This document shows, piece after piece, positions 8,601-60,596 of a DNA stretch of 64,000 bases. A program made the position numbers and the translations under genes. Location: positions 8,556,001-8,620,000 of the forward strand of contig NC_134031.1 of the NCBI RefSeq assembly GCF_964204645.1, read 5' to 3'. Under the pieces are notes generated by a model. The model saw only the letters and a program-made list of their open reading frames with translations. It made no database searches and had not been told where the DNA came from. How positions within the stretch are numbered: the stretch's first letter is position 1; each line of letters begins with the position of its first letter. This DNA comes from Tubulanus polymorphus (lineage: Eukaryota; Animalia; Nemertea).

Positions 8601-10681
8601 ACAGCTACTGCTGATTCTTTATTCTCTTTGATTACTGCATGATGTTATCTTTCTGAAATTAAAATACATACCACTTACAATTAAACCTGGATTGACTTTT
8701 CAATTGATGGTTCAGAATCAATTTTTCAAACATACCTTGATACATTGCAATCTATTCTTTACACGTTGAGCTAATTTGATACGCGTTATTTCAATTTCTT
8801 AAAACATCCTACGAGTTGCGACTTAGAAAATCATCACTAAAACGCTCACAATAATCTACATTAGATAATCAATACGTATAGTGTTTGTGAAATAGCACTC
8901 ATATTCAATCCAATGTTCATTATTTACAATTGTTTTGAACGAAGTAAGTAAGCAAGTGAACTTACCTGGATGTCATTATTTTCACTGGATCAACTGCTGA
9001 TGTCCAATGTCACAATCAGAACAATCAATCAACCGCCTTAGTGAACAAACAAGTAGCCTCTGCTGCATGGTTCAGTTTGTCAGTAGTAGTATTGGTAGTA
9101 TTGAGTATGCATTGTTTCCAGTCCAAATTGGCAAATCGCTGATGGTAGGCCGGTAGGTTTTGACGGCACTGTAATGCAGACATCCTGAATTGATTACCGA
9201 TATTTTCGGTACCACACGCTAAACAAGTGCGTGTAGAAGTGTTACGTGGCAGTTTTAATGGAATTTCTTTCTTCATTGATGTAAAAAACGACTTTAAAGA
9301 GGTCCATTGAACATAAATCAAGACACTCTGTAAGCGGCCATGTTACATTGTTCACGTGATGAAATACTGAAATCTGATTGGATCCGTATATTCCGCGGAA
9401 GATGGCGGACGGGCAAAACCTGTCCCATATTGAATGGGACAGGCAACCACTCTACTTTTTGTGTTGCATGACGGAAGTGTAAATTACAGATTCAGACTTG
9501 AACTTTGACTGGCATTGATGCCAATTTAAATTCTTATGGTAAAATTGACCAAAATTTATACGTTTTACCGACAAGAAATAATATTTAGAGTAATTTTAGA
9601 GAGACATATTGAGACGTTTCAAGGTAATGTCTAGATATTTGGTTTATACATGTATCTACCCTAGACACATCTTCTGCCCAAAAACTGGCCCTGTCAGATT
9701 CAAGATGGCCGACTGGCAGCCATTGTTGTTCGCCAAAATCATCACTTTTTACACATTTTTGGCGAACCGTAGGTTTGCCTATGCAAACAGTCTGATGAAG
9801 CAGTTTTCATTGAAAATGAATAGAGTACCGGTGTGTCGAACAAGGCACAAACATTGGCTGTTGAACCAATTGTGTTGATTTTTGGTTTCATGGTTTGGCT
9901 TAATGAGTTCTCGCGCCCACAAAAATTTCATAGTGATCGAGTTATTTTTAGGGGACTTTTATTTCTAGAAAAAAATTCCGTATATGTTTGTATATTTTTG
10001 ACATTTTGTGGATGGAGGTATTCTGACTTGTGAAATAACGGCCAATCTAATACTGCGTCGCTAGTACATTTGTATATACGCGCGTCAGCAGTCAGCCGCG
10101 TGTGTGCGAATATAGGTTACAGTATATGGCTGTGGGTGTTAGTAATCACCTGAGCGAGTCTATATATAGCAAAGTGACTCGGCAATATACACAGAACTCT
10201 AACACATCCGCAGGCGCATATATTGTCAGCCTCACATCTTCAATCCAAATTAATTTATATTTAGTATAATATTTTTGACAATATATGCACTAAATGATTT
10301 AATGGTGAGCCACAGGGCCATTGGACCTTTATTGAAGTTTTCGAGGGAAATTTTGAAGACGCTTTTTTCAATTACATTGATCGTTCGTATTTATTTGTAT
10401 CCCCCAATGGCCAATCAGCATTAGAAAAATTGGGTTGATCGGATGGCCATCCTATAACCTTTTTTGTGCCCAAAAATGTCAATTTTGGCCTGTATTCCGA
10501 GTCGTGTAGCTTCCTACTGGTTTGCCATTTCTCATTGCAATTTGTGATGGGTATTCTTTGGAAAGGTATCTTTTATACCTGGGACAGGTATTGTTTATCA
10601 CCCAATTATGACGCAATTTGCGGCCATTTCGATGTCATCAGTACTCATTTGGATTTCTGATGATTTTCTTTGTAGGTTAAG

Positions 10682-12541
10682 ATGGAACGATTGCGTGGCT
10701 CTCATGAAAGTGACAGAGAGTGGAGGTTACGCGAAGCATTTCTCAATGCTCACCAGGACAGATTTAGCAAGGATCGCTTGATCTGTTTATCTCATTGTTT
10801 CATTAATGTGGAAATGTATGGCACATCGTACCCCCCGGGAGTGATGCGTATTCTGAGCGAACTTTCCGCTGATGTCAGTGATGATGTGGATGAACTTCGT
10901 CGACAGAAAAAGCAACGTGCAGAGGTTAAATTCGTAAAGGCATCGGATACAGGTAATAAATCAAACGTACTATTGACCAAGTGTAAATCTGAACCGACTA
11001 AAAAACCTATGGTTGGTTTTGTAAAAGCATCCAGCGAGCAGTGCTCAAGTGCGGGTAGTGATGCTCTATCAAGTGGCCGGTCTGGTGCCGATTATTGGGT
11101 AAAAAATGATTCTGTGGAAAGCGTTGTTAGCCTCCACGATGAAAATGACAAATCACCTGTATCCGCTGAAAAATCATCTGAACCAGAAATAAGAACTGGT
11201 AATAGCCGTCGAGGTTTGGGAGCAACTCTCAGGTCGACCAAATCTAAGGAAAAGAAGTCTTCAGTTGTAAACAAGGTCCAATTAGATGAAAGATTTACGC
11301 AAGCTAAATTAAATATAAAATCTGAAGAGGACAGAAAATTTTATTTGCTTGCAGAAGCAATTGCTGAGATAGAAACTGAAGGCATTAATTGCATATCTCT
11401 CATGCATGAATCTTGTGCGAAAACCAAAATGTCTGCCAGTATTGACTTTTCAATGAACAGTCATCAGTACATTTGTCACTTACATATAGATAGTGTAGCT
11501 GTAGCACATGGAATGGGTAACAATAAAAGAACTGCGAAATACGAAGCATATTCTAATGCTATTCAGTCTCTAAAAAAGCCACACTTACATGTCGATCGTG
11601 TCAACCCTGAAAAAACTGAATTGAAAGCCACTGACGAACCTGGAGAAAATGATAGTACTGATGGTGGTATGATGAAGCTTGGTCAACAACAAGTGGCAGC
11701 ACGCGGTATGAAACGTTTACATCCAGATTCTCAAAGGAAGCAAAAACATATCGGTCACAGTAAACCTGGTGGATCACTGGCTGATTTCATCATTTTAGAA
11801 CACGGTTATGTGACCGAACCTAATCCTATCAGTATCATGCATAGCAGTTCCACATTCAATAAGACTAAAATGGAATTTGACTTTAGTGATGGGCGTAGTC
11901 GATTATCGTTGAATGGAGATCTCATTGCTGAAGTGACTCCTACTCAAGAAATGACACCGGGCGTGAAAAAAACCAAGTTATGCGAAATAGCACTTGGAAA
12001 GCTTCGAAAAATGTGTTGGACTATCGAAGTGAAAAAAGCTCACACGAGTGAAACGGGTGTGTCTCGCGATGAAATTCTTGGTGAAATCAACAAACAATCA
12101 GAAACCCTCAACGATTCAAATATCGGCAGTAAGATGTTGAAAAAGATGGGCTGGTCCGGTGGAGGCATTGGAAAAGATGGAAATGGCATTAGTGAGCCGA
12201 TAAAAGCTGACCTAACCGTCATTAAGAGACAAGGCTTTGGTCTGCAAAAAGAGCAAGGCATTAGCAAAGACTTTGTTGAAAATATCCGAATAACGTTGCG
12301 GAACTATATGCGATCTCGCGATGAAACTGACCTTTCATTTACATCCGAATTTAGTAAAGAAGAACGTGCGCTCATACATCAAGAGGGCTCAAAATTGGGA
12401 CTTAAAACCCAAAGCAGAGGCACTGCAGATGAACGATATCTGATTGTTAGTCGGAAACGTGATCTATCTCAGTTAATTTCACATATTCAGAGAAGTGGTG
12501 GATCTACTAGTAAATATGAACTTTTGCCTCCGTTATGGTGA
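10682..12541 (+). CDS. NKRF: NF-kappa-B-repressing factor / CARF-like protein (XRN2-binding XTBD, dsRBD-like, G-patch, R3H), single coding exon
   Basis: 619-aa ORF with N-terminal ESDREWRLREAFL...DRLICLSHCFINV (XTBD), GMGNNKRTAKYEAYSNA (dsRBD), NIGSKMLKKMGWSGGGIGKDGNGISEPI (G-patch) and FSKEERALIHQEGSKLGLKTQSRG (R3H); splice acceptor TTTTCTTTGTAG ends at 10675. Confidence 0.88.
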   Translation: MERLRGSHESDREWRLREAFLNAHQDRFSKDRLICLSHCFINVEMYGTSYPPGVMRILSELSADVSDDVDELRRQKKQRAEVKFVKASDTGNKSNVLLTKCKSEPTKKPMVGFVKASSEQCSSAGSDALSSGRSGADYWVKNDSVESVVSLHDENDKSPVSAEKSSEPEIRTGNSRRGLGATLRSTKSKEKKSSVVNKVQLDERFTQAKLNIKSEEDRKFYLLAEAIAEIETEGINCISLMHESCAKTKMSASIDFSMNSHQYICHLHIDSVAVAHGMGNNKRTAKYEAYSNAIQSLKKPHLHVDRVNPEKTELKATDEPGENDSTDGGMMKLGQQQVAARGMKRLHPDSQRKQKHIGHSKPGGSLADFIILEHGYVTEPNPISIMHSSSTFNKTKMEFDFSDGRSRLSLNGDLIAEVTPTQEMTPGVKKTKLCEIALGKLRKMCWTIEVKKAHTSETGVSRDEILGEINKQSETLNDSNIGSKMLKKMGWSGGGIGKDGNGISEPIKADLTVIKRQGFGLQKEQGISKDFVENIRITLRNYMRSRDETDLSFTSEFSKEERALIHQEGSKLGLKTQSRGTADERYLIVSRKRDLSQLISHIQRSGGSTSKYELLPPLW

Positions 12542-20255: not shown

Positions 20256-20579
20256 ACTAGGAGTCCAGGGACACCATGCCCACTTGGGAAGTGGTTTCAA
20301 TTGCTCAACAATCTAACAATTTCAACATTCAACGCCCCCTGGTGACCATTTACAAAAACCAATGACCATGAAACTGACCACAATAGTAGGACATGTCAGC
20401 AGCTACAATTTTGTAATCGATTGTGATAACAAAATATGCCTCGTTACCAATTTAATATGGAAATACTTAGTCATTCTACTATTCAACGCCCCCTGGTGAC
20501 CATATTCAAAACCCAATGACCTCGAAACTCACCACAATCATAGAACATGTCATGAACTACAACTTTGCAATTGATCATG
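20256..20579 (-). mobile_element. HINE family A 3' fragment, cut at the start of element 1
   Basis: Reverse complement of the family A 3' end and two ~120-bp units. Confidence 0.7.
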
Positions 20580-20694
20580 AGTAATAGGGGTAATAGGCTT
20601 TCAGGCCAAAGGTCGAACGGTCGAGAAATTTTCCAAATGTGAAAATAACAATAATTTCTACTTGTATTAGTCGCGTACACTCCTAATTCAAACC

Positions 20695-22231
20695 TAAAAT
20701 GTTTTAACATTGATCCTTGTCATTCTCATTCTAGTCCAGGATTAACTTGGGATTGTGGTTTAAAATTTACAGATATAGAAATGGATTTGTTAATAAATAT
20801 AGATCAATTATTATTATTTGAAAAGTCTATAAGAGGAGGAGTTTCGGGTGTATTAGGGGATAGATATTTCAATGTAAATGATAACCCTGCATAAGTTATT
20901 ATATATAGATGCAAATAATTTGTATGGTTGGGCAATGATGGAACCACAACCTTATGGAGTATTTGAAATAAGTGAAGTTTTACAACATGAAAATAATGAC
21001 AAATTTGATTGGAAGAAAAGAATCCTAGATATTGCAGATGATTCAGAGACTGGTTACTTCTTTGTTGTAGATTTAGAATATCCTGAAAATATTAAATTTA
21101 AATCTAGAAATCTAGCATACTGTCCCGAACATAAAACTGTAACTCATGAAGAATTATCAAATTATTAAAAAAGAATTAAACCCGAAAATTATATTCATAC
21201 AGAAAAGTTAATGGTAACTCAAGCAGATAAATATGATTATGTAGTACATTATAGAATGTTGAAGTTTTATTTGAATCAAGGAATGATCCTAAAAAAAGTA
21301 CATAGATATATTTCATTCAGTCAATCTAAATGGTTAGAAAAATATATAGATTTTAACACCAAATAGAGAACTGAAGCTAAAACTGATTTCGAGAAAGATT
21401 TCTTCAAGTTAATGAACAATGCATTCTATGGAAAAACTTGTGAAAATATTAGAAATAGAAATGATATTGAGTTAGTTAGTAATGGTAAAAGAATTAGACA
21501 TTTACAAACATATCCTTAATTTATAGGTAACAGAATATTTGATGAAAATTTAGCCGCAGTTAAAATGAGAAGAACATCAATGAAATTTAATAAACCAATT
21601 TATGTTGGTGCTTCAGTTTTAGAAATATCAAAGCTATTGATGTATGAATTCTATTATAATGTATTACAACCTAATTTTGGAGAAAAACATATAGAAATCT
21701 TATATTTTGATACTGACAGTTACATATTAAAGATAAAAACTAATAACATAACTGATGATTAAAAAACATCATTTTGATTTCAGTTATTATCCTAAAAATC
21801 ATGAATTGTTTAGCAATGATAATAAAAAAGTTCCTGGTAAATTCAAAGATGAATTAGGTGGTGAAGAAATGATTGAATTCATTGGTATTAGATCTAAAAT
21901 GTATTCATATAAAAACTAAAGAACATGAAGCTAAAAAGTTAAAAGGAATAACCAAAAGTGTAGAAGAAAAGAATATTCATTTCAAAGATTACATCAATTG
22001 TATATTCAATGAAGAAGTTAGAAAACATAAGATGAGATGTTTAAGATCTGAAGATCATGAGATGTTTATTGAAGAGATAAGATAAGTCTAAACCCATTTG
22101 ATGATAAAAGATATATTTTAGATGATGGAATTCATACAGTTGCATATGGTTGTAATTTAGATGAATACTTAAAATTTAAAAGAGAAGAAACAAAAGAGAA
22201 CGAGATTATGAACAGGATTCTAACGTGTTAA
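20695..22231 (+). pseudogene. Protein-primed family B DNA polymerase, C-terminal part, intein-free allele
   Basis: YIDANNLYGWAM (motif A), KLMNNAFYGK (motif B), ILYFDTDSY (motif C); several stops and frameshifts. Confidence 0.9.
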
Positions 22232-22614: not shown

Positions 22615-22631
22615 GAAAATATGTAAAATAA

Positions 22632-23386
22632 ATGGCGGAATTAAAAGAATACAGAATATTTGTTGATTCAAGAAGACTTACAAATTATAAATCACATAAT
22701 TTATTAGTTCAATTAGATAGAGAATTTAAGAATTGTGTAGATTTAAAATTAGTAAATATAAGTTTATGTAATTCTTTTTATAATATATCGGATAAAACTT
22801 TTGAACATAGAGGGTTTATGATTTATATGAGAAATAAAGATAAATGGTTTCATATATTTTTAAAACCAGGATTATATAATTTAGAATCATTAGCGCAGGA
22901 AATTAATAGAAGAGCTCGGTTGAAAATCGGGGGTACTTCTGTATTTGAAATTAAATTTAATAAAATTGATAGTACTAATAAAATAAGAATAAAGATTTCT
23001 AATGAACAACATCAATTTATGGTAAACAAACCACTGGCTAAAATGTTAGGAATTAAACCGCTTACAGTTACTAGAAACGTAGAAGGCATCTCAAATATGA
23101 TACCTTTTACACATTTTTATATTTATTGCAATTTAATCGATCCTACAAAACTTTCGAAGCAACTAAAGAAACAATTTGTAGTTCTAGTATACTAAATATT
23201 TTACCGCTAAAAAATGTTAAACAATTTGGAACTCAAATAAATTATAAATTAACAGAATGTGATTTTAAACCTTGCATTCCTAAATTTAATAATTTTAGAT
23301 TAGAAGTAAGAAATCATAATGGATACTTAATTGATTTGAATAACTTTCCTGTAATTTATGAATTAATTATAAGATGTAAAGAGTAA
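22632..23386 (+). pseudogene. Minor capsid protein (penton), frameshifted
   Basis: NSFYNIS, LKPGLYNLESLAQEIN, LAKMLG, FYIYCNLI and LEVRNHNGYLIDLNNFPVIYEL penton-type motifs across two frames. Confidence 0.75.
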
Positions 23387-23401
23387 TTTTTCACTATATA
23401 A

Positions 23402-23746
23402 ATGAATATAACTGTTGGACCGAGTATATGTTTTGGGTTTGATTTTAAACGTGAGAAAGAAATGAAATTTAACATTAATGATGTAATTATACATATTAAA
23501 AATATTGCATTTTCTAACGAAACAACATTTAAGTATGAAACAACAATAGATAAAGAAACTTTAAATGAAGAAAAGATTACTAATTTAATTAGAGAATCTT
23601 TAAGATTTTATGAATTGGATGAAGATTTTATCATTGATGATATTAAAAAAATAATAATTGAAATATATACAAATGAAACTAGTAATGAAATAAATGTTGA
23701 ATTAATCATAAATAAGTTAACTAAATATTTTGAAGATTTTTTTTGA
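23402..23746 (+). CDS. Polinton hypothetical protein
   Basis: Near-identical to 55214-55570; TAAATG start. Confidence 0.7.
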   Translation: MNITVGPSICFGFDFKREKEMKFNINDVIIHIKNIAFSNETTFKYETTIDKETLNEEKITNLIRESLRFYELDEDFIIDDIKKIIIEIYTNETSNEINVELIINKLTKYFEDFF

Positions 23747-23753
23747 TAAATAA

Positions 23754-23975
23754 ATGAGTGATGATAAGTGGATAATAACTGGATTATATAATGGAGCATT
23801 ACTATCAGTTGGAACTGTTGGTTATATAATGGTATTAAAAAAAGTATTTAAAATGGGAAGTGTTAATGTTGATAGATTTGATATAAATGATATTTTAAAA
23901 TTAACATTAGCAGTTACTTTATCTAATTTAACTATTGATTATTTGGAAAAACAAAAATATATTCCTCCCATATAA
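23754..23975 (+). CDS. Small putative membrane protein
   Basis: Near-identical to 55571-55801; hydrophobic segments. Confidence 0.7.
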   Translation: MSDDKWIITGLYNGALLSVGTVGYIMVLKKVFKMGSVNVDRFDINDILKLTLAVTLSNLTIDYLEKQKYIPPI

Positions 23976-23999
23976 ATGCGTAATTATTTTACTAAATAA

Positions 24000-24421
24000 A
24001 TGGTTTCTGCAGTTATAACTATTATAGGATCTGCAATTGTTAACGCTTTAGCATTTTCTGGTGGTGGATATTTATTTAAACATATTGATAAAAATGGATC
24101 ATTAACAGAACAAAAAATACATAACTTAGCATAAGAGAAATACAATAAAGCAGCAGAAGAATATAGAGAAAAAAGACAAAACTATATGGATTATATTAAC
24201 AAAGAATTATATGATCAGAAGATTTCACATAGAGATTTTCAATCAGTTGATGATGCAATGAGTTTATATAACGCGGTAACCAATAAAGAAAATTACATCT
24301 ATACAAACCTAAATTATCAGATTATTATACCCCAAGTAAAGAACAACAGAAATATGAAATAATATGGATTTTAGGTGGAACAGTTATTGTTATATTTGTA
24401 GCGTATAGATTTACTTATTAG
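24000..24421 (+). pseudogene. Homolog of 55818-56243 (hydrophobic N- and C-termini), frameshifted
   Basis: MVSAVITIIGSAIVNALAFSGGGYLF start; colinear with the element 2 gene. Confidence 0.7.
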
Positions 24422-24441
24422 TAATTTTTTTTTCTAAATAA

Positions 24442-24867
24442 ATGGATGATGATATTGATATTATTCCTCATGATATAAATAAAACTAAATTAAAAATATA
24501 TTAAGAAAAACAAATATAAGAATTTGAAAGTGACTTAAAGATAAAAAAGAAAAAATATTTAAAAAGTAAAATTATATATTATTTGATTATAAGTGGTTCG
24601 GTTACAATTAGTTCTGTAATAACATTTCTAGCAATATTCAGTCCATTAACACCTTTAGCTATATCAATTGGCGTATTAGGATTAAGTTCAAGTGTTTTAA
24701 CTGGTATAAGTTCAAAATTAAATATAAAAAGTAATAAAGAAAAAATTAAAACTAATATAAAAGAAATTAATAAATCAAAGAATACACTAGATTATATAAT
24801 AAGTTTAAATGGTCATATAACAGTTGAAGAACAAGATAAATTATTAAAAGAATTAATAAATTATTAA
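24442..24867 (+). pseudogene. Two-TM coiled-coil protein with an internal stop
   Basis: TAAATG start; matches the N-terminal part of 56263-57561. Confidence 0.65.
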
Positions 24868-27578: not shown

Positions 27579-30574
27579 TAGGGTTTTCTGTTACATTACA
27601 GAAAACCCTATTGAGATTCGCGTGTTTCTTATTATCATTATTATTATTATTATTATTTTTTTCCACACATTTTTTGTCAAAAGTACATAGGCTTTTTTAC
27701 ATTACCGCTGTTGCCGATACAATCCGTTTGATATCATTTAGCTCACTTCGATCTACAAATACTCCGCGCAAATTTTGAAGAATCAACGTTACAAAAGCAC
27801 TGTCGGGCCGTAAACATCGAAAATTGAGCCCCATTCAAAGAGCCGACATGTTTTTCTAAGTCGTCTATCCGAAATCTACCGCACGTTTCTTGTCACATCG
27901 ATTATCAAATCAAGCATAAATTAACAAATTTATTACCCAAAGATTGCACATTCTGTCGCGGTTTTTAAAAAACTAATTTTAACAATAACCCATTTTCCTC
28001 ATCAAATTATAATACCAATACACAGGAAATTTACTACTTTAGATTTTAAAAGCACTGTCGAGCCGTAAACATCGACGAATCGACGTGTGTTACTACATCG
28101 TCGTTCCGGGAATCAGCTGCGAGTTTCTCCTCATTCTGTGAATCAAATCGAGTACAAGTTAATTTATTACTACCAGTGATTTGGCTGCGGGCGTCAAGCA
28201 GTTAATTTAGCAATACCTATTTTTCTTTACCAAATTTACCGTGTTTTTACTAAGATAAATCATAAGTGTACCGGGGAGTCGTAGGCCTAAACTAAACACG
28301 CCGAAGAGATATAGCGGAGAAAAGCTGTTATGTCGACGAGGTATCAAAATAAAAGAATATATTACTTTATTCGGCCGCGGGCCTCTATATCAATACCATC
28401 AATACTCTATATTTCCTACAGTACATACCGATCATTGTCAAATCCACAAGGTATTTACTAAATACAAGTATATAACACACTCCTATCCGTATGCTGGACT
28501 CACACTTGACATTCGGAGTAAGCGTTTGCTGTGGGGGAAAGGAGATCGTTCGCTGTGTCGCTTGAAGTGTTTATCGAGTTTTACGCGACCTTAAAGCTTT
28601 AGTATGGTGGCTGATAAGATAAAAAACACGAATATGCAAATGAGGGCGACATTACGACAAAACTAAAATAACGCGAGAAAACAATGATTTTGATTTTGTT
28701 GCCCGTGACAATTCATTATTTTGGTTTTATCGCCCACGACAATTCATTACTTTGGTTTTATCGCCAGCGACAATGCATTATTTTGGTTTTGTCGCCCGCG
28801 ACAATTCTTCTTTTTGGTTTTGTCGCCCGCGACAATTCATTATTTTGGTTTTATATTTTGTTTTTGTCGCCCGCGACAATTTTCTTTTTTGGTTTTGTCG
28901 CCCGCGACAATTCAATATTTTGGTTTTATCGCCTGCGACAATTCAATATTTTGGTTTTATCGCCCGCAATAATTCATTATTTTGGTTTTGTCGCCTGAGA
29001 CAATTCATTATTTTGGTTTTATCGCCCGCGACAATTCATTATTACGGTTTTGTCGCCCGCGACAATTCATTATTTTGGTTTTGTCGCCCCGACAATTCTT
29101 TTTTTAGTTTTGTCGCCCGCGAAAATTCATTAGTTTGGTTTTGTCGCCCACGACAATTCAATATTTTGGTTTTGTCGCCCGCGACAATTCAATATTTTGG
29201 TTTTGTCGCCCGCGACAATTCATTATTTTGGTTTTATCGCCCGCGACAATTCATTATTTTGGTTTTGTCGCCCCGACAATTCTTTTTTTGGTTTTGTCGC
29301 CCGCGAAAATTCATGAGTTTGGTTTTGTCGCCCGCGATAATTCATTATTTTGGTTTTATCGCCCGCGACAATTCATTATTTTGGTTTTGTCGCCCGAGAC
29401 AATTCATTACTTTAGTATTGTCGCCCGCGACAATTCATTATTTTAGTTTTGTCGCCTGGACAATTCACCATTTTGGTTTTGTCGCCTGCGACAATTCATT
29501 ATTTTGGTTTTGTCGCCCCGACAGTTCTTTTTTTGGTTTTGTCGCCCGCGACAATTCATTAGTTTGGTTTTGTCGCCCGAGACAATTCATTATTATAGTT
29601 TTGTCGCCCGCGACAATTCATTATTTTGGTTTTGTCGCCTGGACAATTCACCATTTTGGTTTTGTCGCCTGTGACAATTCATTATTTTGGTTTTGTCGCC
29701 CCGACAGTTCTTTTTTTGGTTTTGTCGCCCGCGACAATTCATTATTTTGGTTTTGTCGCCCCGACAGTTCTTTTTTTGGTTTTGTCGCCCGCGACAATTC
29801 ATTATTTTGGTTTTGTCGCCCGCGACAATTCAATATTTTGGTTTTATCGCCCACGACAATACATTATTTTGGTTTTATCACCCGCAACAATTCAATATTT
29901 TGTTTTTATCGCCCGCGACAATTCTTGTTTTTGGTTTTGTCGCCCGCGACAATTCATTATTTTGGTTTTATCGCCCGCGACAATTTAATGTTTTGGTTTA
30001 TCGCCCGCGATAATACATTATTTTGGTTTTATCACCCGCAACAATTCAATATTTTGTTTTTATCGCCCGAGACAATTCATTATTTTGGTTTTATCGCCCG
30101 CGACAATTCAATATTTTTGTTTTATCGCCCGCGACAATTCATTAGTTTGGTTTTATCGCCCGCGACAATTCATTAGTTTGGTTTTGTCGCCCGCGACAAT
30201 TCAATATTTTGGTTTTATCACCCGCGACAATTCATTAGTTTGGTTTTGTCGCCCATGACAATTCTTTTTCAGTCCACTTGGGACTTTAGTCCCAGCGGGC
30301 TATTGTGTTCACTTTTCTTCAGTCCGTCCGTCCATAGACGGAATACAGTTATTTTGGGAAGTTTTGAAGACGCGTTCCGTTGATTTCGGTTACAAGTTTC
30401 TGTTCAGAGATAACTGCTGAGCCATTTTAACGACCTATCATTGATACTGTTTCCTAATAGCCTCTATAGTAATGGCTGATGTTGAACCTTATCAAATGCT
30501 TTGTTGAAATCCACCGTTGAACAGGATTCTAAGACTGTGCAGAAAATTTGTTATCGCTGCTTTGCAGCTATATT
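27579..30574 (+). mobile_element. HINE family B insertion carrying a ~29-bp tandem array
   Basis: 5' TAGGGTTTTCTGTTACATTACAGAAAACCCTA hairpin and 3' GCAGAAAA...ATCGCTGCTTTGCAGCTATATTT; inserted in a T-run; the empty site is seen in element 2 near 57490. Confidence 0.75.
28685..30265 (+). repeat. Minisatellite, ~29-bp unit (ATTCATTATTTTGGTTTTGTCGCCCGCGACA-like), roughly 50 copies
   Basis: Direct reading of tandem units with 28-30-bp variants. Confidence 0.95.
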
Positions 30575-30661
30575 TTTATTTTTAATTACAGTTGTAAGTG
30601 CAATTATTTTTGGGTAAGTAAACATGATAAAAAATAAATAATTAATTTTTTTGTTAAATAA

Positions 30662-31912
30662 ATGAGTGGGAGTTATATCAATCCTTCTAAGAATCATAGA
30701 ATATCTAATGCTATTAAAGCAGAAAGATCACATCATATAATTACTCATAACCCTTCTAATATTAATCCTGATGAAACTTTATATGTTAGAATTCCTCGAT
30801 TAACACAAAATACTTTTTATGTTCCAAATAGTATTTATTTATCAGCCGATATAAAAGTAACCGGTAATAATAATAATTATGTTGTCGATAATGTTGGAAG
30901 ATATTTGATTAAAAAATTAATAATAAAGATTGGACCAGAAACAGTTTTCTCATTAGATGATTATAATTTATTTATGCATTATAAAGATTTATGGTTAACT
31001 AAAGAAAATAGAAATAATATGATATTCCAACGAATCCAATCAGAAAACCAAAATAAATTAAGATCAGAAGCACATAATGCAATATTAACTAATGCTATAG
31101 ATAAATTGATAAAAAGTATATATGGAAGCAAATATGAAATTCCATTAGACTTTGAATTGATAAATAATAATGCGCCTTTATATAAATACGCAATTCAAGA
31201 AGATGTTATATTCGAAATAACATTTGCTCCTGTAAATGAAATTGTAATATCTAGCGTTGTTAAAGATATGGGTTATAAATTATCGAATATATGTTAAGAA
31301 TATGATACAGTAACTGATGAAAATATTTCAAGTATAATTCAAACTCAATACAATCAAGGATTTTCATTATTATATGATTATATTGATAAATTTAAAACTG
31401 TAACTATTAATGCAGGTGATGAAATAATTAATGAGAATATTAACTTCCCAAGAAGATCTATTAAAGGTATATTAATATTTTTTACCATTGCAAGATATAC
31501 TAATGGTGCAATAAATGTTGATAATTATTATAATCCTGAAATAACAAAAGTAGAAATAACTATCGAAGGAATAGCAAATAAGATATTTTGTCAAGGAATG
31601 AGAATGATAGATCAATGGCCAGAAATTAGAAAACATTTTATGAATGAAAAAGTAAAATCATCTGAAAATTGTAATATGAATCAAATTGATTATTATACCG
31701 GTAATAAATATGCATTATGGTTAGATTTTAGAACAACAGAGGATAATAATTCATTACATGGTTCTGGAAAAAAACTACAGAACACTAAAGATGGAATACA
31801 ATTATTCATGACAAAGAATAAAGGAATCAAAAATTTTAAAATGCACATTTATATTATATCTGACGCGCAATTAAATATTGTAAATTCTCAATTAAATAGT
31901 ATTATGTATTAG
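30662..31912 (+). pseudogene. Major capsid protein (double jelly-roll type), internal stop at 31295
   Basis: High identity to 57582-58829; HIITHNPSNINPDETLYVRIPRL N-terminus, ~415 codons, position in the structural block. Confidence 0.75.
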
Positions 31913-31944
31913 AATTTTAACTTTAATAAAAATTTATATAATAA

Positions 31945-32954: not shown

Positions 32955-33566
32955 TTATTTTATAAACTTATATTCATATGGAAATTGAAGCCTCAGAAAT
33001 AATTTTGAACCTTTATTATTCTTTAATTTATTCATATATTCATCATGTAATTCAGTAGGTATAATTTGATTTTCTTCCAATGATTGTTGCATAGATTTTC
33101 TATCTTTGTTATAAAATAAAACTAGAAATCTTATATTCTCCCTAAAGTCTTTAACAATTGAATTATATTTTTGATTTAAAACCCATGTTGTTATCCCAAA
33201 ATGTCTCCCAGAAAAAGCTAGATAACATAACTCACTTTCTCTCACTTTTGAATCATGTAAATTAGCGCAATCATCTATAATGAATAATGTATTTGATCCT
33301 TTATAAGTATCAATTGCTATTTTAATACAATTATCTAAATTTTCTTTTACTGTTTTAGGATCTAATATAATAAACTGTTTTATCTTAACTATATCTCTAT
33401 TTTATGTTTTATTCATTTCATAAGTAGGACAAAATAATATTATATTATCAAAATGATTCTTATAAATAGTTTCTAACAAGTCTAATATGAAATGTGTTTT
33501 ACCACAATTTGTTACTTCAGTTATTAACATATCATGCGGTTCAAATATAAATAAATCTTTATTCAT
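32955..33566 (-). pseudogene. A32/FtsK-like genome packaging ATPase
   Basis: Homologous to 59988-60596; Walker A degraded to EVTNCGKT; FIIDD Walker B; internal stop. Confidence 0.85.
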
Positions 33567-34666
33567 TTATTCTTTTAATTTTACTAGATAAAATCCATTC
33601 ATTAAATTTATCATCATATCCTTTATATTTCACCAAAGAATACTTTTTTCCTTTAAGAGTTTTTGTTTTCAATACTTTTTCTATTTTGTATTCTATTTCA
33701 TCTGGATTTGGTACAAGTGATAATTCTTGTTCATAGAAATAACCTAATATTTCTTCGTCTTTTAGATCTTCTAATTTATAAACAAATGGTTTAGTTAATA
33801 TTATCTTTTTAATCTTAAATATTTCTTCCGTAAAATTAGGGGTATAACCTTTTATAAAATGTTTTTCTATATTTAGATATTCTTACGTGTTGTCCAATTT
33901 TAAATTTAGGTTCGCCGAAATCATGTGTAACAAATGCTCCATATAAATTATTCCAAACTATTTCCGAATTATCTTCTTTTCTAGCTTGTATAGGTTTCAT
34001 ATTTATAGAACTATGTTTAGAATTATTATAACCTTTCACTAAATGATCTAACACATCGATATATTTATATGTTTCATTAGCAGTAAAATATTTCCACATT
34101 CTAGTTTTCAATGTTTTATTAAATCTTTCTATAATAGATGCTTTTTTATCTGAATGTGTTGAAAAATAATCTACGTCGTTATCAGATAATAGTTTTTTGA
34201 AATGTTTGTTATAAAATTCCTTACCTTCATCAAATTGTATCTTATCTGGAATAGCTTCTTTAAATATTGATTTAAAAGCATTTGTCACTTCTATACCAGT
34301 TTTATTTTTGATTGCAATTGACCATGCGTATTTACTGAATATGTCTATAACATTCAGTATCCAGAATTATCCTTTGTTGTGTTCTTCTAAGTTCTTCATG
34401 TCAATTAAATCTGCTTGCCATTGTTGATCGATATATGAAACCATAACTTTTCTTGTTGAATAAGTTTTATCCATTTTCTTGTGTATTTGATATGTTGGTT
34501 GATTTTGTAACCATGATTTTAATTCACTATATTTTATATTGCCATTTTCCTTATCAGATTTAATTTTATTTCATAATTCTGAAACGTTAGAATATGATAC
34601 TTCACTTTCTGGGTTATAATATAAATCTCTTAAATATTGTTCTTTTTTCATCTTATTTTAATCCAT
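33567..34666 (-). pseudogene. Retroviral-like (rve) integrase with C-terminal chromodomain
   Basis: WQADLIDM, IDIFSKYAW, IQFDEGKEF, IERFNKTLK; stops and a frameshift. Confidence 0.9.
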
Positions 34667-37064: not shown

Positions 37065-38311
37065 TCATAATATAGATTTTTATTAAAAATTGGTTAATAT
37101 TTTAGAATCCTTTTCCAATTCTTCGACCAACGTCATCCTTTTTCATTCCTCGCTGCTTTTGATAAGTCGTTTCGATTCCTTGATATCTAAATCATACCAC
37201 TGGGCAAAAGCGCTCTTATAGGCGCGTTTTTGCTTAATGCGCTTGCGCTAATCTTAATTATATATTCATTCTATAAATTCTGTAAAATAGAAACAACTGA
37301 ACACAAAATTCAAACGCATGCGCACTAGGCAAAAGCGCACATACAGGCGTGCTTTTGCTTAATGCGCATGCGTTAATCATAATTGAAACGACTGAACATA
37401 AAAATTCACCAAACAGATTTACACAATACATATACAAGTATGTTCGGTCGTTTCTTCCAATACCTCATTTGATTTCTATATATAAAATCTATAATTACAA
37501 ACATTTTTTCAATTGCCGGTAAATATTTAACTACATCAACAAATGTTAAACTTAATCATTGGAGTCTTAATGTTTTTGAAATTCTTATATAGTTTCTTCT
37601 TCGATCTTTTGTGATTCTTGTGCTTCTACGTCAATTTCTATTGGTTCGATATCCATTGCTGTTGATTCCTCAGTCAGAAAGAGTATCTTGAGTTTCTCTA
37701 TCGCTTCTTGATGCGTATGACATTTTATTCAACTAAAAGATATCAGCGGTAACTCTAATTATCTAAAAGATACACTAAATACACTTAAATATATCTAAAG
37801 GTTTCATATTTAATGGCCCTAATAACTACAAAAAACAGTACTTACATTTAGATTTAGAATTGTAATCTATAAACTCCTAATTGCGTTTCGAGAGATAAAA
37901 TATCCTAAGCGTTATGTTAAATCATCTATTCAGTTCCGGTGCGATTTCTAGAATGAACACGTCTGCGATTATGACACGTCATCTCTATTCAGAGTTCCGG
38001 TACACCTTCTAGAATGTTCTACGCGTTTGCAGTATTATGACTCATATGTCTCGGCGTCATAGTAACAGCTGTGACAGCTGTGAATTTATAGATTTATTCA
38101 ATAGTTCATTACATGAAATGTATATAGGCTCAAATAGAATCTTGTTCTAGTATAAGCAAATGCTATGTATTATATCATTTATATATATGAATTATTTCAA
38201 TCACACTTTACTAACACTCGTACTCTCGTACTCTGATCTGAAAGCCTACTTTTCTAATTACTTATATATGTTATTCATTTATATTTTATTCATGTATATG
38301 AATATTTTAAG

Positions 38312-39889: not shown

Positions 39890-40752
39890 ACTAGGGGTCC
39901 AGGGACACCATGTCCACTTGGGAAGTGGTTCCGAATGCTCAACAATCTAACAATTTCAATATTCAACGCCCCCTGGTGACCATATTCAAAACCCACTGAC
40001 CTTCAAAACTCACCACAATCATAGAACATGTCACGAACTATAACTTTGTAATTGATCATGGTAACAAAATATGCCTAGGTACCAATATAATAAGGAAATA
40101 CTAAGTTATTCTACTATTCAACGCCCCCTGGTGACCATATAGAATAACTATTGGCCTTAAAAATTGCCACAATCATAGATCATGTCATGAGCTACAACTT
40201 TGCAATTGATTGTGGTTACAAAATATGCATTGATACGAATATAATATAGAAATACTAAGATATTGCATTATTCAACGCCCCCTGGTGGCCATATACAAAA
40301 TCCAATGACCTTCAAACTCACCACAATCATAAACCATGTCATGTGCTACAACTTTCCAATTGATTGTGGTAAGAAAATATGCTTAAATATCAACAATATA
40401 ATGTGGAAAAACTTTTCCCACCTACGAATGAGTGCTTATGACACCAAGATGGCTACCAATTGCGTCATAATTGGCTGATCAAAAATACCTGTCTCAGGTA
40501 TAACACATCCCTTTTCAAAGAATAACCATCACAAATTGCAATGAGAAATGGCGAACCAGTAGGGAGCTACAGCACTCCGAATTCGGGCCAAAATTGACAT
40601 TTTTGGGCACTAAAAAGGTCATAGGACGGTCATCTTGAGTCCGATCGACCCAATTTTTGTTATGCTGATGGGCCCTGGGGGGATTCACATACATCCAAAA
40701 GATCAAGGTAATTGATCAAAGCGTCTTCAAAATTTCCCTCAAAAAGTTCAAC
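39890..40752 (-). mobile_element. HINE family A copy
   Basis: Reverse complement of the family A 3' end, repeats and core. Confidence 0.7.
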
Positions 40753-41650
40753 AAGAAAATTAATTTTAGAAAATTATTTGACGCCTGGGAAAAAAATGTA
40801 GAATTTCTGAGCTAAGCTAATGTGGATTGCAAATTTGAAATCGAAGTTTTAAGAAATTTGGGAAGTGATGAGATTTGGCGATTGGGTAGATGATACAGGT
40901 CTTCGACTCTAGTAGTGGTTTAAATTTTTTTATTGAAAATTCTCAATAATTGATCGCGAACTTGCGACCGACTTCATTTACTTATGCCTCTAAGCTGGTC
41001 TGCAACTTCATTGCCTCCATGGATGAGGAAAGAGCTCTTCTGATGTCTGCTTCATCATGACTTCGAGCATATCGTGTGGCCTAGCCAGCCGGCCCGGTCC
41101 CCGGCCACGGGTTTGGCTGTCACTCGATATCCTAGAGTCTTGAGTCTGGGTGGGTTGAAGTAGACATTGTCATCTAAAATAACATGCTTATGTTGTTCTG
41201 TATGAATTACCCGTGTGTCATGTATGTTGTAATAATTTATTTTAAAATTTGTATTTATTGAATTTGGGAATTTTATCCCGGAATATCAATGTAATAAGGA
41301 TCAATAAAGAATTGAATTGAATTGTCACCTTATACACATGCCATCAGAGGACATGGAGCCGTATATGACAGCTATGCTATTATAAATTGCTAATCTCACG
41401 AAACTTGCATACTCCTAATATCAAACATATTTTCTAAAACGTTTGAATATTGAAATTATATGTTTACACATTTTCATATTGACCGCTTGTAGCCGCTGAT
41501 GAAATTCACGCCGGCCCTACACACATCGTAGATAGCTTCGTCATTCCACCGGCATGCCCACGTCAGGGTCTGACTTTTATATCAGACTTCCGCATCGTGT
41601 ATACATCCGCCATTTAACCGAATAATCCGATTTACTTATCATTTCTATTT

Positions 41651-47896: not shown

Positions 47897-47960
47897 AAGA
47901 ATTGGAAAAGTAGGCTTTCAGATCAGAGGACGAGACACCACTCGTCACCACAAGTAATTT
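47897..47960 (+). repeat. Left TIR of element 2
   Basis: Reverse complement of 62625-62697, apart from a short duplication on the right and terminal mismatches. Confidence 0.9.
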
Positions 47961-47973
47961 TTTTTCCTAATAA

Positions 47974-50900
47974 ATGGGGGAGAATGAACACCAGCCAGAA
48001 AACAATAATGTTAATAAAAATCAATATTATTGCACATATTGTAAAAAATACGTCGATACATCTAATAAAACACGACATGAAAAAACTGCAAATCATATAA
48101 AAAATGTAATAGATTTTGAAACTCCAGAAAATTCCAATGAAAGAAAAGAAAGATTAGAAAATATGAATGTGGATGAAATAAAATGTGAAGTTTGTAATGA
48201 ATTTATAGTAAAAAGGAATTATAATAGACATCTCGAATCACAAAAACACCATCAAAATTTGAGTAATAATGTTTTAGGAAAAGATTATTTTGATGATAAA
48301 CCTCAAAAAGTAAAAAAAACCAACTTCAAAAACTAAATCCATTTCAAATAAACCTTACATGGAAAATGTTAGAAATTATATTGATTCACTAGAACAAAAG
48401 ATACAATTGAAATTTTAGAAACATTACATAGTAAAATTGGTCCTGCAGCTATTATATTTAGATTTTTTAAAGGTACAACAATAGAAGATTATAGTACATT
48501 TAATGAAATACTAGAAAAAATACTAGATTTGATAACAGATGTTGAATATCCAAAAATTAGTATCTCTGGGAAAGTAAGTTTTATAAAGTCAGAAGAAAAA
48601 GTGAATTATAATATTCAAACACACTCTGAAGAAATAATTTCAAAAACACAAATAAAAGAGAAGTTAGAAAAAATATTTAATGAATTTAAACGTCATATTG
48701 AAGAAAGATATTTTGAGGGTTCTGGCTTAACATTGAATGAAATTATATATTTAGATTTAAATGTTTATAATACAAAAAGAAATAAAACATCAAAAAGTAA
48801 TAAAATGTTTAAAAATGATTCAAACTTTACAACAGAAAAGGATATTAAAGCATCATCTTATGTTAAATTACCATTTACAACAAAAGCAGTAATAAATATT
48901 CAAAATAAAGATAATAAATGTTTTCTATGGTCAATTATTAGTTGCTTACATCCAACACAGGAAAATGTTTGTAGAATAACAAATTACCGGAAATATGAAA
49001 CATTATATAAAATTTATCAATATCCAGTAACTATAAAAATGATTCCTAAAATAGAAAAAGTTGATAATTTAAAAATAAATGTATTTGAATTAATGCAATT
49101 ACCAAAGACAAAAGGTGAAAATATTAAAGATTATACATTGGAAGCTTTATATTTAACAGAATATTATGATGATGAAAATGCTATAGATTTGTTATATTAC
49201 AAAAAAGATGAAAATGAACATTATATGTGGTTAAAACAAATTGATTTATTCTTTAGAACAGAAAGTGATCACCATAATAAAATTTATCTATGTAGAAAAT
49301 GTTTATCTAAATTTATGACTGAGAATACATTATTAAAACATAAAGAATTATGTGATAATATAGATTTTTGTAATGCCAACAGAAAAAGATTATAAATTGA
49401 AATTTACTAATCATAAATTTAAGAATATTGTTCCATTTGTAATTTATGGGGATTTTGAATCGTTGAATAAAGAATTAACTGATCAAGATAGAAAAGAAAT
49501 ATATAACAAAAAGCAATTATTAAAATCAATGGATAAAGGAAATGAATTAAATGAAGACACAATACAAGACCAACCAATTATAAATACAATTAAAAAAGTT
49601 CATCAAAGAGCTGCTGCTTATGGAATTTATATAAAATCAAATTATCCTGAATTATATGAAAGTCAATATATTTCTATTAGAGGTGAAAATGTAGTTAATG
49701 ATTTTTGTGATAAAATGATTGAATTAGAAAGTGATTTTTCAAAATTATTAAACAAAAATAAAAGAATAGTTATGACAAAAGAAGATGAAATTGATTTTAA
49801 TTATGCAACTCATTGTTGTTATTGTGAAAAACGTTTTTATTCATTTGATAAAAAAGTTAGAGATCATGATCATTTAAATTCAAAATATCGTGGAGCTGCT
49901 CTTGAAGATTGTAATTTACAAGCTAAAAAAGTAAATTTCGTTCCAATATTATTTCATAATTTATCAGGCTATGATACCCATCTATTTATAAAACAATTAT
50001 CAAGGAAATTGGGCACAATTAATCAAGAAATAGAAGAATATAATGCTATGAATGGTGTAAATGTAAGAAAATATGATTTTAAACTATTAGCTAAAACATC
50101 TGAAAATTATGTTTCATTTCAATTTGGTTGCATTAGATTTCTAGATTCTTATAGATTTCTAGCAAGTTCATTAGATAATTTATCAAAAAGTTTAGTTGAT
50201 AATGATTTTCTAATAACTCGATATTATTATCCAAATGACCAAGATTTTAAATTATTGAGATATAAAGGTGCAATTCCTTATTCATTTTATAAAACACACA
50301 ATGATTTTAATGTAACAGAATTATTAAAAGATCAATTTTATGATCAATTTAAAGAGGAGTATGTGAAAGACGAAGTGTTTAATAGAACATTAAATGTTTG
50401 GAACCATTTTAAGATGAAAAATCATGGCGAATTAGTTGATTTATATCTAAAATCAGATGTCATGATATTGGCTGACATATTTGAAAAATTTAGAGAAGTT
50501 AATTTGAATCATTTTAATGTTGATCCTTGTTATTGCTACTCTAGTCCTGGTTTAACCTGGCAATGTGGTTTAAAATATACAAATGTAGAATTAGATTTAT
50601 TAAAAGAACCAGATATGGTTTTATTATTTGAAAAATCAATTAGCGGTGGAATTAGTGGTGTTATGGGAGATAGATATTTTAAAGCAAATGATGAATATAA
50701 ATTATTATATATTGACGCCAATAATTTATATGGCTGGGCAATGATGCAACCTCAACCATACAAAAATTTTATATTAACAGAAGTTGAAAATGATGATAAA
50801 ACTGATTGGGAAAGTGCAATTGCGAGTTTAAAAGATGAAGCACCAATTGGTTATTTCTTTGTAGTTGATTTAGAATATCCTGAAAATATAAAGTTTAAAA

Positions 50901-53028
50901 CAAGAAACTTACCTTATTGCCCAGAACATTTAACTGTAGATGATAGTTATTTAAGTGAATACCAGAAGAAAATAAAACCGAAAGATCATGTTTTTACAGA
51001 AAAATTAATACTTACTCAAAATAATAAATACAATTATATTGTTCATTATAGAATGTTAAAATTTTATCTAAAACAAGGAATGAAATTAAAGAAAGTACAT
51101 AGATATATTGAATTTAATCAATCGAAGTGGTTAGAAAAATATATAGATTTCAATACTCAACAGAGAACCATATCAAAAACAGATTTTGAAAAAGATTTCT
51201 TCAAATTAATGAATAATAGTTTTTATGGTAAAACATGCGAAAATATTAGAAATAGAAATGATATTGCATTAGTAAATAATTCTGAAAGATTAAGACATTT
51301 ACAATCAAGTCCTAGACATTTAGGAAATAAAAGATTTGAAGATTATTTTACAGCAGTTAAATTAAAAAGAACGTCAATGAAATTAAATAAACCTATATTT
51401 ATTGGTTCAACTGTTTTAGAAGTATCAAAATTATTAATGTATGATTTTTATTATAATGTTTTACAACCACTTTTTGGGGAAAAGCATATTGAAATATTAT
51501 ATTTTGATTCTGTAACAGCTGACACACCAATATTATTAAAATGTAATGATAAAATATTGATAAGAAGAATTTCAGAAATAATTCCAAAACAAAATGAATG
51601 TTATATTTCATATGGTGAAAAAGAATTAATACAAATAAATGGATTAATGGATGTTTGGACAAGAAATGGATGGAAAAAATTAAAGAATATTATTAGGCAT
51701 AAAACAAATAAGAAAATCTATAGAGTTAGAACTAAATTAGGTTCGTTGATGTTACAGAAGATCATAGTTTAATTAAACGAAATGGCGATGAAATAAAACC
51801 AACTGATATAAAAATTGGAGATGAATTATTACATAAAAGATTTTTCTAAAGAATGAATCATATGTCATTTGATGAAATAATTGATAATATTTATAATACA
51901 GAACCCGAAACATTAGAAGAAAAAGAATATTTTATCAAAGGATTTTTCATGGGTGATGGTTCAGCAGGTGTGTATGATTATGTTAATCGCACTCAATATT
52001 GCTGGTATTTATGCAATCAAGATTTGAAATTATTAGAAAGAATAAAGAAATTCTGTGAAGAAGTTTATTCACATAAAACATTCAAAATCATAGATGTTAT
52101 GAAATCATCGCAATGTTATAGAATACATGTGAATAATCCTAAAGATTTTGCTATAAAATATAATGACGAATTCTATATTCATGCAATAGTGAAAAGTAAT
52201 ACTTCAACTAAAGAAAAGATAATTCCAGATTATGTATTAAATGTAAAAAATAATTTAAGAAAATGGTTCTTCATTGGATTCTACGCAGCAGATGGTACTA
52301 AAAGTTTCAAAAATCGCAAAACAATATCTTTAGCTCAAAAAGGAAAAGTTGCTATATCAGGATTGAATATATTATGCAATTCATCAGGTTTTAATATGAA
52401 TATTGGATTGATTAAATCTAAACCAAATTGCTTTAATTTAAGCCATGTAGAAAATGAGTTAACAGAAGAAGTTAAAGATTTATTTGAAATATATAACCCA
52501 AAAGATTATGTTTATGATTTATCAACTGAAGATCGTACATTTAACTGTGGATTTCCATTAATAGCCAAAAATACTGACGCCTACATACTAAAAATCAAGA
52601 CAAATGACATAACAAAAGACTTAAAAACATTAAAACATCATTTTGATTTTAGCAATTATCCCAAAGATCATGAACTATTTAGCAATGATAATAAAAAGAT
52701 TCCTGGTAAGTTTAAAGATGAATTAGGGGGTGATGAAATGAATGAATTTGTTGGGATAAGAAGTAAAATGTATAGTTACAGAACAAAAGATCATGAAGCT
52801 AAAAAGTTAAAAGGAATAACAAAACATGTGGTTGATAAACATATAGAATTTCAAGATTATATAAAGTGTTTATATAAATCAATTGTAATGAAACATAAAA
52901 TGAATTGTTTAAGATCAGAAGATCACGAGATGTACATTAATGAAGTTGAAAAAACTAGTTTGAATCCATTTGATGATAAAAGGCATATTTTAGATGATGG
53001 TATAAAAACATTACCTTATGGCCATTAA
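47974..53028 (+). pseudogene. Protein-primed family B DNA polymerase (N-terminal zinc fingers, terminal-protein region, EndoVII-like insert, exonuclease, palm) containing an intein; several frameshifts and stops
   Basis: YGDFES, VRDHDHL, FHNLSGYDTHLF, YLKSDV, YIDANNLYGWAM, KLMNNSFYGK and YFD|intein|TD across ORFs 47974, 48529, 49373 and 51853. Confidence 0.92.
51509..52572 (+). mobile_element. Intein with dual LAGLIDADG homing endonuclease in PolB motif C
   Basis: Starts SVTADTPILL; block [10 protein letters not shown]; endonuclease motifs FIKGFFMGDG and FFIGFYAADG; block F YVYDLST; ends LIAKN followed by Thr+1; one frameshift at ~51744 and one stop at 51847. Confidence 0.93.
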
Positions 53029-54351: not shown

Positions 54352-54409
54352 TTATTAGGGAAAAAAATTACTTGTGGTGATGAGTGGTAATTTTTTTATG
54401 TTATAAATA

Positions 54410-55197: not shown

Positions 55198-55213
55198 TTT
55201 TTTCATTATATAA

Positions 55214-55570: not shown

Positions 55571-55801
55571 ATGAGTGATAATAAGTGGATAATAACTGGA
55601 TTATATAATGGAGCATTACTATCAGTTGGAACTGTTGGTTATTCAATGGTATTAAAAAAAGTATTTAAAATGGGAAGTGTTAATGTTGATAGATTTGATA
55701 TAAATGATATCTTAAAATTAACATTAGCAGTTACTTTATCTAATTTAACTATTGATTATTTAGAAAAACAAAAATATATTCCTCCCATAATAAATGCATA
55801 A
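55571..55801 (+). CDS. Small putative membrane protein
   Basis: Conserved with element 1; hydrophobic. Confidence 0.7.
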   Translation: MSDNKWIITGLYNGALLSVGTVGYSMVLKKVFKMGSVNVDRFDINDILKLTLAVTLSNLTIDYLEKQKYIPPIINA

Positions 55802-55817
55802 TTTTTTTGCTAAATAA

Positions 55818-58859: not shown

Positions 58860-59987
58860 ATGGGTGGTAAAAAAACTCCTAATACTAAAGAACAATATTT
58901 AAGAAATTTATATTACAACCCTGAGAGTTCGGTTGCTTATTCTTCTACTAAAAATATATGGCGTCAAGTAAAACAAGATAAATTAGATAAGATAATCCCA
59001 CAAAATTTAGTTAAATATAAAGATATAAATCAATTTATGTTAGAACAACCAACATATACAACACATAGATAAATTGTTAGAAATTATAAAACTCGTAAAA
59101 CTATGGTAAGTTATGTAGATCAACAGTGGCAAGGAGATTTAATTGATATGAAAAATGTTAAGAAAGATAATAATGATTATTGGTGGTTATTGAATATAAT
59201 TGATATTTTTAGTCGTTATGTATGGAGTTTCCCACTTTATAGAAAAGATGCTGTACAAACATCAAATGTTTTAAGAAAATTTCTTTCGGATGATAAACTA
59301 AAACCAGAAAAAATACAATTTGATGATGGAAAAGAGTTTGATAATTCACTTGTTCATGAACTCTTAGATAATCATAATATTAAATATTTTTCAACAAAAT
59401 CGGATAAAAAAGCAGCAGTTGTTGAACGATTTAATAGAACATTAAGAACAAGAATGTGGAAATATTTTACCGCAAATAATACTTTTAAATGGATTGATGT
59501 TTTACCAAAATTGATAGAAGGATATAATAATTCTTATCATTCTTCTATTGGAATGAAACCTATTGATGCTAGAAAACCTGAAAATGCTGAAATTGTTTGG
59601 AATAATTTATATGGAGCATTTCTTGTAGATGATTTTGGTGAACCTAAATTTAAAGTTGGTCAAAATGTTAGAATTTCTAAGTATAAAAAGATATTTGACA
59701 AGGGATACGATCGAAATTTTACTAGAGAAATATATAAAATAAAAAAGGTAATAACAACAAAACCATATGTCTATAAATTAGAAGATTTAGATGGTGAAGA
59801 AGTTGATGGGTATTTTTATGAAGAAGAATTGAGTTTAACTACTGAAAATCTAGAACAAGAATATAAAATTGAAAAAGAATTAAAAACAAAAACTATTAAA
59901 AGAAAAAAATATTCTTTAGTAAAATGGATTGGATGGCCAGATAAATTCAATGAATGGATATTATCAAGTAAAATTAAAAATATATAA
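58860..59987 (+). pseudogene. rve integrase with chromodomain, single internal stop at 59070-59072
   Basis: WQGDLIDM, IDIFSRYVW, IQFDDGKEF, VERFNRTL (DDE); YKIEK...LVKWIGWPDKFNEWI chromodomain. Confidence 0.92.
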
Positions 59988-60596
59988 ATGAATAAGGAAT
60001 TATTCATATTTGAGCCTCATAATATGTTAATTTCTGGCGTAACAAATTGTGGAAAAACTTATTTTGTATCAAATTTATTAGAAACTGTTTATGAAAACTA
60101 TTTTGATAATATAGTATTATTTTGTCCAACATATGAATTTAATCAAACTTATGATAGAAATATTACTAGAAATAATAAATTTATTATATTAGATCCTAAA
60201 ACAGTAAAAGAAAATTTAGATAATTGTATTAAAATAGCAATAGATATTTATAAAGGATCAAATACATTATTCATTATAGATGATTGTGCAAATTTACATG
60301 ATTCAAAAATTGGAGAGAGTGAGTTATGTTATTTAGCTTTTTCTGGCAGACATTTTGGGATAATAACTTGGGTTTTAAATCAAAAATATAATTCAATTGT
60401 TAAAGACTTTAGAGAAAACATTAGATTTCTAGTTTTATTCTACAATAAAGATAGAAAATCGATGAAAAATGCACTTGAGGAAAATGATATAATTCCACAT
60501 GATTTACATAATGAATATATGGATAAGTTGAAAAATATTAAAAGATCAAAATTACTATTTAGATTACAACACCCATTTAAATATGAATTTATTTAA
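59988..60596 (+). CDS. A32/FtsK-like genome packaging ATPase
   Basis: Walker A GVTNCGKT, Walker B LFIIDD, GRHFGI..W.LNQ motif. Confidence 0.9.
   Translation: MNKELFIFEPHNMLISGVTNCGKTYFVSNLLETVYENYFDNIVLFCPTYEFNQTYDRNITRNNKFIILDPKTVKENLDNCIKIAIDIYKGSNTLFIIDDCANLHDSKIGESELCYLAFSGRHFGIITWVLNQKYNSIVKDFRENIRFLVLFYNKDRKSMKNALEENDIIPHDLHNEYMDKLKNIKRSKLLFRLQHPFKYEFI

Follow-up and report, generated by a model that had tools for sequence, protein, structure and literature searches.

Is a polymerase site that carries no intein, lying in one window with a related polymerase that is interrupted by an intein at the same position, the target of that intein's nuclease? The question is raised by a stretch of 64,000 nucleotides (the window), which holds two AT-rich elements within host DNA, E1 (~20.7-38.3 kb) and E2 (47.9-62.7 kb). 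The initial annotation had regarded E1 as a sister element of E2 and positions 21685-21745 in E1 as the natural homing target of the E2 intein. Our analysis identifies the E1 stretch as the pol-c intein site of a decayed Polinton polymerase in its ordinary, empty state. The full reading that we favour, and consider fairly probable, is that the LAGLIDADG intein of the neighbouring element likely derives from the polymerases of giant viruses and was likely passed by homing from one Polinton lineage to another, the E1 lineage being a possible target that was apparently not converted.

Two decayed Polintons with polymerases of different lineages

E2 encodes a protein-primed PolB (pPolB), an rve integrase and an A32 ATPase (profile search) between inverted 36-nt repeats (left repeat 47900..47935, plus strand here and below unless stated; inverted copy 62659-62694, 36/36 identical). 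Because of this gene set and because the same repeat also ends E1 (38224-38259, 94%), both elements are Polintons, although E1 retains its right end only. The E2 polymerase consists of an N-extein (48385..51508; two ORFs with a frameshift near 49370; Pfam DNA_pol_B_2, E 1e-19) and a C-extein (52573..53028) that starts with Thr-Asp-Ala, and the E2 integrase and Pox_A32 ATPase (59073..60596) were recognised by profile matches. In E1, a pPolB remnant without its 5' part was found by tblastn and alignment (20691..22149, where 20691 is the start of the match); it is broken by in-frame stops at 21166, 21364 and 21517 and by frameshifts after the intein site. The integrase and A32-type ATPase of E1 (32962..34645, minus strand) lie in the opposite orientation to their counterparts in E2 (58887-60592), with an identity of only 77%. 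A capsid-like block of E1 (30560..31926) is 93% identical to E2 57474-58843, and the evidence for a double jelly-roll capsid gene is a single weak Capsid_N match in it (E 0.004). Among the 29 ORFs scanned there was no match to a protease, and a target-site duplication was not identified.

Some further features of the window may be noted. An array of about 40 or more copies of a 31-nt unit (28626-30300) splits two blocks of E1 that are contiguous in E2. Between the two Polintons lie a Gag/aspartyl-protease ORF and a fragment of a Tc5/pogo-type DDE transposase (41618-43318 and 47029-47601). A host repeat that contains a 154-nt tandem unit is dispersed over the window (451-1058, 4946-5399, 20279-20578, 39914-40521 and 45954-46295), and one of its copies adjoins the truncated left end of E1. 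The host DNA also contains an NKRF/CARF-like gene (10676..12541; XTBD, G-patch and R3H domains), whose nearest Atlas clusters are from mollusc, arthropod and chordate, which points to an animal as the host.

The designation of E1 as a sister of E2 did not survive comparison of the polymerases. Upstream of the site their DNA is 76% identical (997 columns) and downstream of it 79% (437 columns), and 164 of 222 residues are identical in the proteins; in contrast, E2 shares 199 of 225 residues (88%) with the empty P0001, its nearest relative, and E1 groups with the empty P0002-P0004. A single PolB clade of E1 and E2 was rejected (p-AU 0.005, for a group named after seeing the tree), so the two belong to different PolB lineages. 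Other blocks of the two elements are 91-94% and up to 95-99% identical. One of them (E1 22626..24809, common to E2 54405-56639) rises from 79-84% to 95-99% identity, with ~1.3 kb in the latter range. As a shared block of up to 99% identity stands beside polymerases of 76-79%, the two lineages must have met, and we read E1 and E2 as two lineages that swapped a DNA module. Such an exchange shows contact, which is a precondition for homing. Note that an inverted copy (54350-54388) of the sub-terminal motif of E2 (47937-47975) lies exactly where the high identity with E1 starts; the PolB module at 47.9-54.4 kb is therefore flanked by inverted motifs and is possibly a swappable or transpoviron-like module.

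The filled and the empty form of the pol-c site

In E2, ATTGAAATATTATATTTTGAT (51488-51508) is followed by an insert of 1064 nt (51509..52572) and then by ACTGACGCC (TDA) from 52573. The insert was confirmed to be a LAGLIDADG intein: it sits in frame at YxD|TD of PolB motif C (the bar marks the insertion point), a position for which empty alleles are known, and has Ser1, the block-B TxxH motif (TEDH at 51754), a terminal Lys-Asn (Asn codon 52570-72; the penultimate Lys is also found in many relatives) and Thr at +1 (52573). Its reading frame is interrupted twice, first by a frameshift (near 51740) and then by a stop (51847); the first of these breaks is absent from 177 of ~240 raw DNA reads (set X5; 12% of the run, 1.9 Gb, was read). 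One open frame (51850-52572) nevertheless contains two LAGLIDADG motifs (51931-51960 and 52267-52296; together 51931..52296), both ending in Asp-Gly, and scores 27.8 bits with Pfam LAGLIDADG_3 (cut-off 22.5). An alignment-based model of this piece (pLDDT 88), used in place of a poor single-sequence fold (pLDDT 43), matches I-DmoI, the TliVMA intein and PI-SceI. The two motifs, their acidic residues and the predicted two-domain fold are those expected of a monomeric LAGLIDADG homing endonuclease. Pfam Intein_splicing was not matched by the intein pieces of the window; the intact relative P0020 (~48% identical) reaches 42.4 bits (cut-off 35.8), and intact relatives of the E2 intein score with Intein_splicing, LAGLIDADG_3 and Hom_end.

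The corresponding stretch of E1 (21691..21720) reads ATAGAAATCTTATATTTTGAT|ACTGACAGT (IEILYFD|TDS), i.e., it has the same left flank as E2 and an uninterrupted motif C, as had been described. The 21-nt site pattern occurs twice in the window (0.06 occurrences expected). The initial annotation held that this pair fixes the insertion point exactly, which is correct for position 21711/21712 if the S…N|T protein chemistry is taken into account; the DNA alone leaves an uncertainty of 2 nt, since AT stands at the end of both the left flank and the intein.

The coexistence of intein-plus and intein-minus alleles of one site in one genome is borne out not only by E1 and E2 but also by the reads. In X5, intein-only bins have a mean depth of 208x at 85% likeness and the empty junction is spanned ~250x at 90% likeness, which for the 1.9 Gb read would correspond to many copies of both alleles in any animal-sized genome. 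Three or more variants of the site are present among the empty alleles: two that differ in the third position at +3, and one with another Ser codon (~21%). Among the joints listed, one runs across the intein (46 reads) and resumes directly after the +3 codon, as expected for E1-like alleles. No E2-type empty allele was found among the 15 joints listed, and no intein start on E1-like flanks among the loose ends listed (smallest group 13 reads). Within these read groups the intein appears linked to the E2 lineage in this genome, and the E1 lineage appears as a possible target that was apparently left unconverted.

Distribution of the intein among related polymerases

Relatives of the polymerase were collected as the best 120 of 3008 matches plus two sequences from another search; three truncated sequences and five cluster members were dropped, and E1 and E2 were added. 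Out of the 121 PolB rows (E1 and E2 included), 113 are empty and eight are filled, with a query that contained the start of the intein and so favoured filled alleles; empty is the default state of the pol-c site among these polymerases. Scoring intein presence on a PolB tree and looking for co-conversion tracts had been proposed for the copies of this genome; applied to the 121 relatives instead, this check gave a patchy distribution and one tract. The intein-plus state requires six changes on the tree, five of them forced by starred branches (the same in a 60-row tree), counts that do not tell gains from losses. At the same time, a single clade (SH-aLRT 99, in an unrooted tree) unites the 11 inteins of pPolB type, three of which were assigned by the C-extein only, and leaves out 58 other PolB inteins. 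The deep splits of the intein and extein trees agree (P0103, P0121 and P0122 apart from the rest), as old vertical descent would give.

The tract is found in P0020. The inteins of P0016, P0017 and P0020 form a starred clade, whereas one clade of their polymerases was rejected (p-AU 9e-5; this group, too, was named after the tree). P0020 sits in a 37-row clade (support 100), the other 36 members of which are empty. Its residues at -2, +3, +4, +5 and +8 occur in none of these 36 relatives but in 27, 25, 30, 25 and 17, respectively, of the 30 members of the P0016/P0017 clade, and at -7 and further out it has the residue of its own clade (-7: 35 of 36). Furthermore, its intein is 80-83% identical to those of P0016 and P0017, compared with 69-71% for the N-extein. 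Tree discordance and a short donor-type tract (-2..+8) thus coincide in P0020, and this would be the footprint expected of homing with short co-conversion. The homing signal comes largely from this one protein, which may be a chimeric assembly.

Relatives of the intein are present in other polymerases as well. Metagenome contigs yielded four loci, of which L001 is a pPolB without neighbours and two are giant-virus-like PolBs; L003 and L004 carry relatives of the pPolB-type inteins in giant-virus-like PolB. No relative was found in the viral contigs and GTDB genomes searched. P0123 and P0131, PolBs with a C4 zinc finger of Pol-delta type, contain the same pol-c intein and are the best match outside pPolBs. 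Related inteins also occur two residues downstream, after YGDTD (P0210, P0231), and after EGD/DAD/GLD motifs in P0155, P0198, P0208 and P0238, which may be topoisomerase II-like. Many empty pPolBs (P0023-P0119) read YMD|CDS (Cys at +1) or YID|TDG, flanks with which no filled allele was seen; these flanks could represent target escape. The pPolBs P0103 and P0010 are filed under bacterial names (Ca. Thiodiazotropha and Sulfurimonas, respectively) and are likely host Polinton DNA in symbiont bins.

Probable homing between Polinton lineages, its alternatives and known systems

Did the nuclease of the E2 lineage cut E1-type alleles, so that E1 is its cognate target and the two lineages took part in homing within this host until they decayed, as the initial annotation implied? 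We consider this unlikely. The flanks of E1 and E2 are identical only at -12..+6 (18 bp). Upstream, mismatches are found at -13, -19, -25 and -31, all third positions, and at -38 to -40; downstream, they affect the adjacent positions +7, +8 and +9 and then +16, +21, +24, +27 and +30. As LAGLIDADG enzymes, with targets of at least 20 bp, tolerate wobble changes (PMC3943268, as far as its text is available), the third-position differences leave the E1 site plausible as a target, and the two lineages did exchange DNA. Both also have Leu at -4, where P0001-P0004 have Met, and E2 matches E1 at 8 of 12 informative residues in -20..+60 compared with 15 of 86 elsewhere (p ~0.001, for a window chosen post hoc), which hints at an older E1-lineage tract in E2. 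However, the three adjacent mismatches at +7..+9 speak against the E1 sequence as a target, and silent-site identity near the site (16 of 26 and 6 of 12 codons) is not above the background (87 of 132 elsewhere), so there was no recent conversion between the two lineages. Sub-region trees of +1..+53 did not separate the possible placements of E2 (p-AU 0.47 and 0.35). With post hoc site patterns, opposing silent sites and such trees, a conversion tract from the E1 lineage into E2 is not claimed. The reads point in the same direction, as the empty junction is deeply spanned and not one of the loose ends listed joins E1-like flanks to the start of the intein. The region 21685-21745 is therefore at most a candidate for the natural homing target, one that we hold with low confidence. 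Since both copies in the window are decayed, any homing would have run between active ancestors rather than between the E1 and E2 loci themselves; the proposal of homing between Polinton copies thus holds at the level of lineages, for which the patchy PolB tree and the P0020 tract speak, and fails at the level of these two loci.

It could also be argued that this Polinton group has had the intein since ancient times, inherited it vertically and lost it precisely many times, E1 being one such loss or never having had it, without any homing between lineages. The single clade of pPolB inteins and the agreeing deep splits fit this scenario, as does the GC content of the E2 intein (25%, compared with 24-27% in its exteins). 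Yet many exact deletions among the 113 empty rows would be needed, and the donor-type flanks of P0020 and an intein more conserved than its polymerase would stay unexplained, which makes strictly vertical descent quite improbable. Separate capture of the intein by each intein-plus Polinton lineage from co-infecting giant viruses is more improbable still: PolBs of other kinds often carry this allele (the E2 intein has 513 relatives at E<=0.001, most of the best 150 being PolB inteins at YGD|TDS), but the 11 pPolB-type inteins group apart from the 58 others.

Homing among Polinton lineages, the reading that we prefer, is supported by the six changes, the single intein clade, the P0020 tract and an intein that is closer than the polymerase. 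The two alleles, the anatomy of the intein, its patchy distribution, the mosaic flank of P0020 and the exchange of DNA between the E1 and E2 lineages were observed; splicing, cleavage and the direction and timing of transfer are inferred. An intein of a giant-virus PolB would have entered a Polinton, as judged from diversity only, the intein tree being unrooted. Two Polintons would then have replicated in one cell, the intein splicing out of PolB by means of Ser1, TxxH, the terminal Asn and Thr +1, as these motifs predict. The nuclease would have cut an empty YxD|TDS allele, and repair off the intein-plus copy would have carried over the intein with a few flanking codons, as P0020 and the patchy tree suggest. 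The E1 lineage may have stayed empty because its site was poorly cut or because contact was rare. A bolder version, to which we give limited credence, is that a pol-c intein jumped only once from a giant virus into Polinton PolBs and then homed between lineages, so that animal germline genomes hold tens to hundreds of true inteins beside empty targets, as a natural gene drive among endogenous viruses that is still able to act between copies in this species.

An empty site alone is ordinary; what stands out is the wider system, in which Polintons of an animal genome carry a pol-c intein that shows signs of having homed from lineage to lineage. According to the available text of reviews, inteins are absent from metazoan genomes (PMC8529194), and the inteins of eukaryotic viruses listed in a survey, in its available part, all come from large DNA viruses or from unclassified viruses (PMC5784728). 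Searches of openly accessible full text turned up no report of a Hint/LAGLIDADG intein in a Polinton or in the genome of an animal, although one may be mentioned in subscription papers or in an intein database. At high copy in Polintons, such an intein would be an exception to the metazoan absence, by a viral route, and would reveal gene flow that connects giant viruses with Polintons. Homing, if true, would mean that a single cell can harbour the replication of different Polintons, and in a genome where filled and empty alleles are both numerous, the target tolerance of a homing endonuclease and the resistance to it can be measured directly.

The HNH and VSR nuclease insertions described in Polinton pPolB2 (PMC10748475 and preprint) likewise place a nuclease domain inside a Polinton polymerase; in the available text no Hint domain is reported for them, and the word "intein" does not occur in that of PMC10748475. 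The E2 insert, in contrast, has the anatomy of a full Hint and LAGLIDADG intein in a catalytic motif with known empty alleles. The nearest prior statement is a suggestion, in the accessible part of PMC11161782, that pPolBs acquired their HNH/VSR insertions through invasion by inteins. Inter-paralog intein homing in Anaeramoeba (PMC10710043, as far as available) resembles our case in that filled and empty homologous sites, including those of DNA polymerases, occur in one eukaryotic genome. It concerns, however, cellular genes of a protist, with Polintons and animals unmentioned in the available text, whereas E1 and E2 are multicopy endogenous viruses of an animal. The closest likeness is to the family-B pol-c inteins of Mimivirus and archaea (PMC549080, available part), which interrupt motif C at an identical point (YGD|TDS, compared with YFD|TDS in E1) and have a similar length (351 aa; 355 codons in E2, with X at the breaks), a LAGLIDADG domain, a terminal Asn and Thr at +1. 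These inteins reside in the RNA-primed PolB of a giant virus or an archaeon, whereas the E2 intein sits in a protein-primed PolB, encoded by a Polinton that is integrated into the genome of an animal, and the pPolB inteins form a clade of their own.
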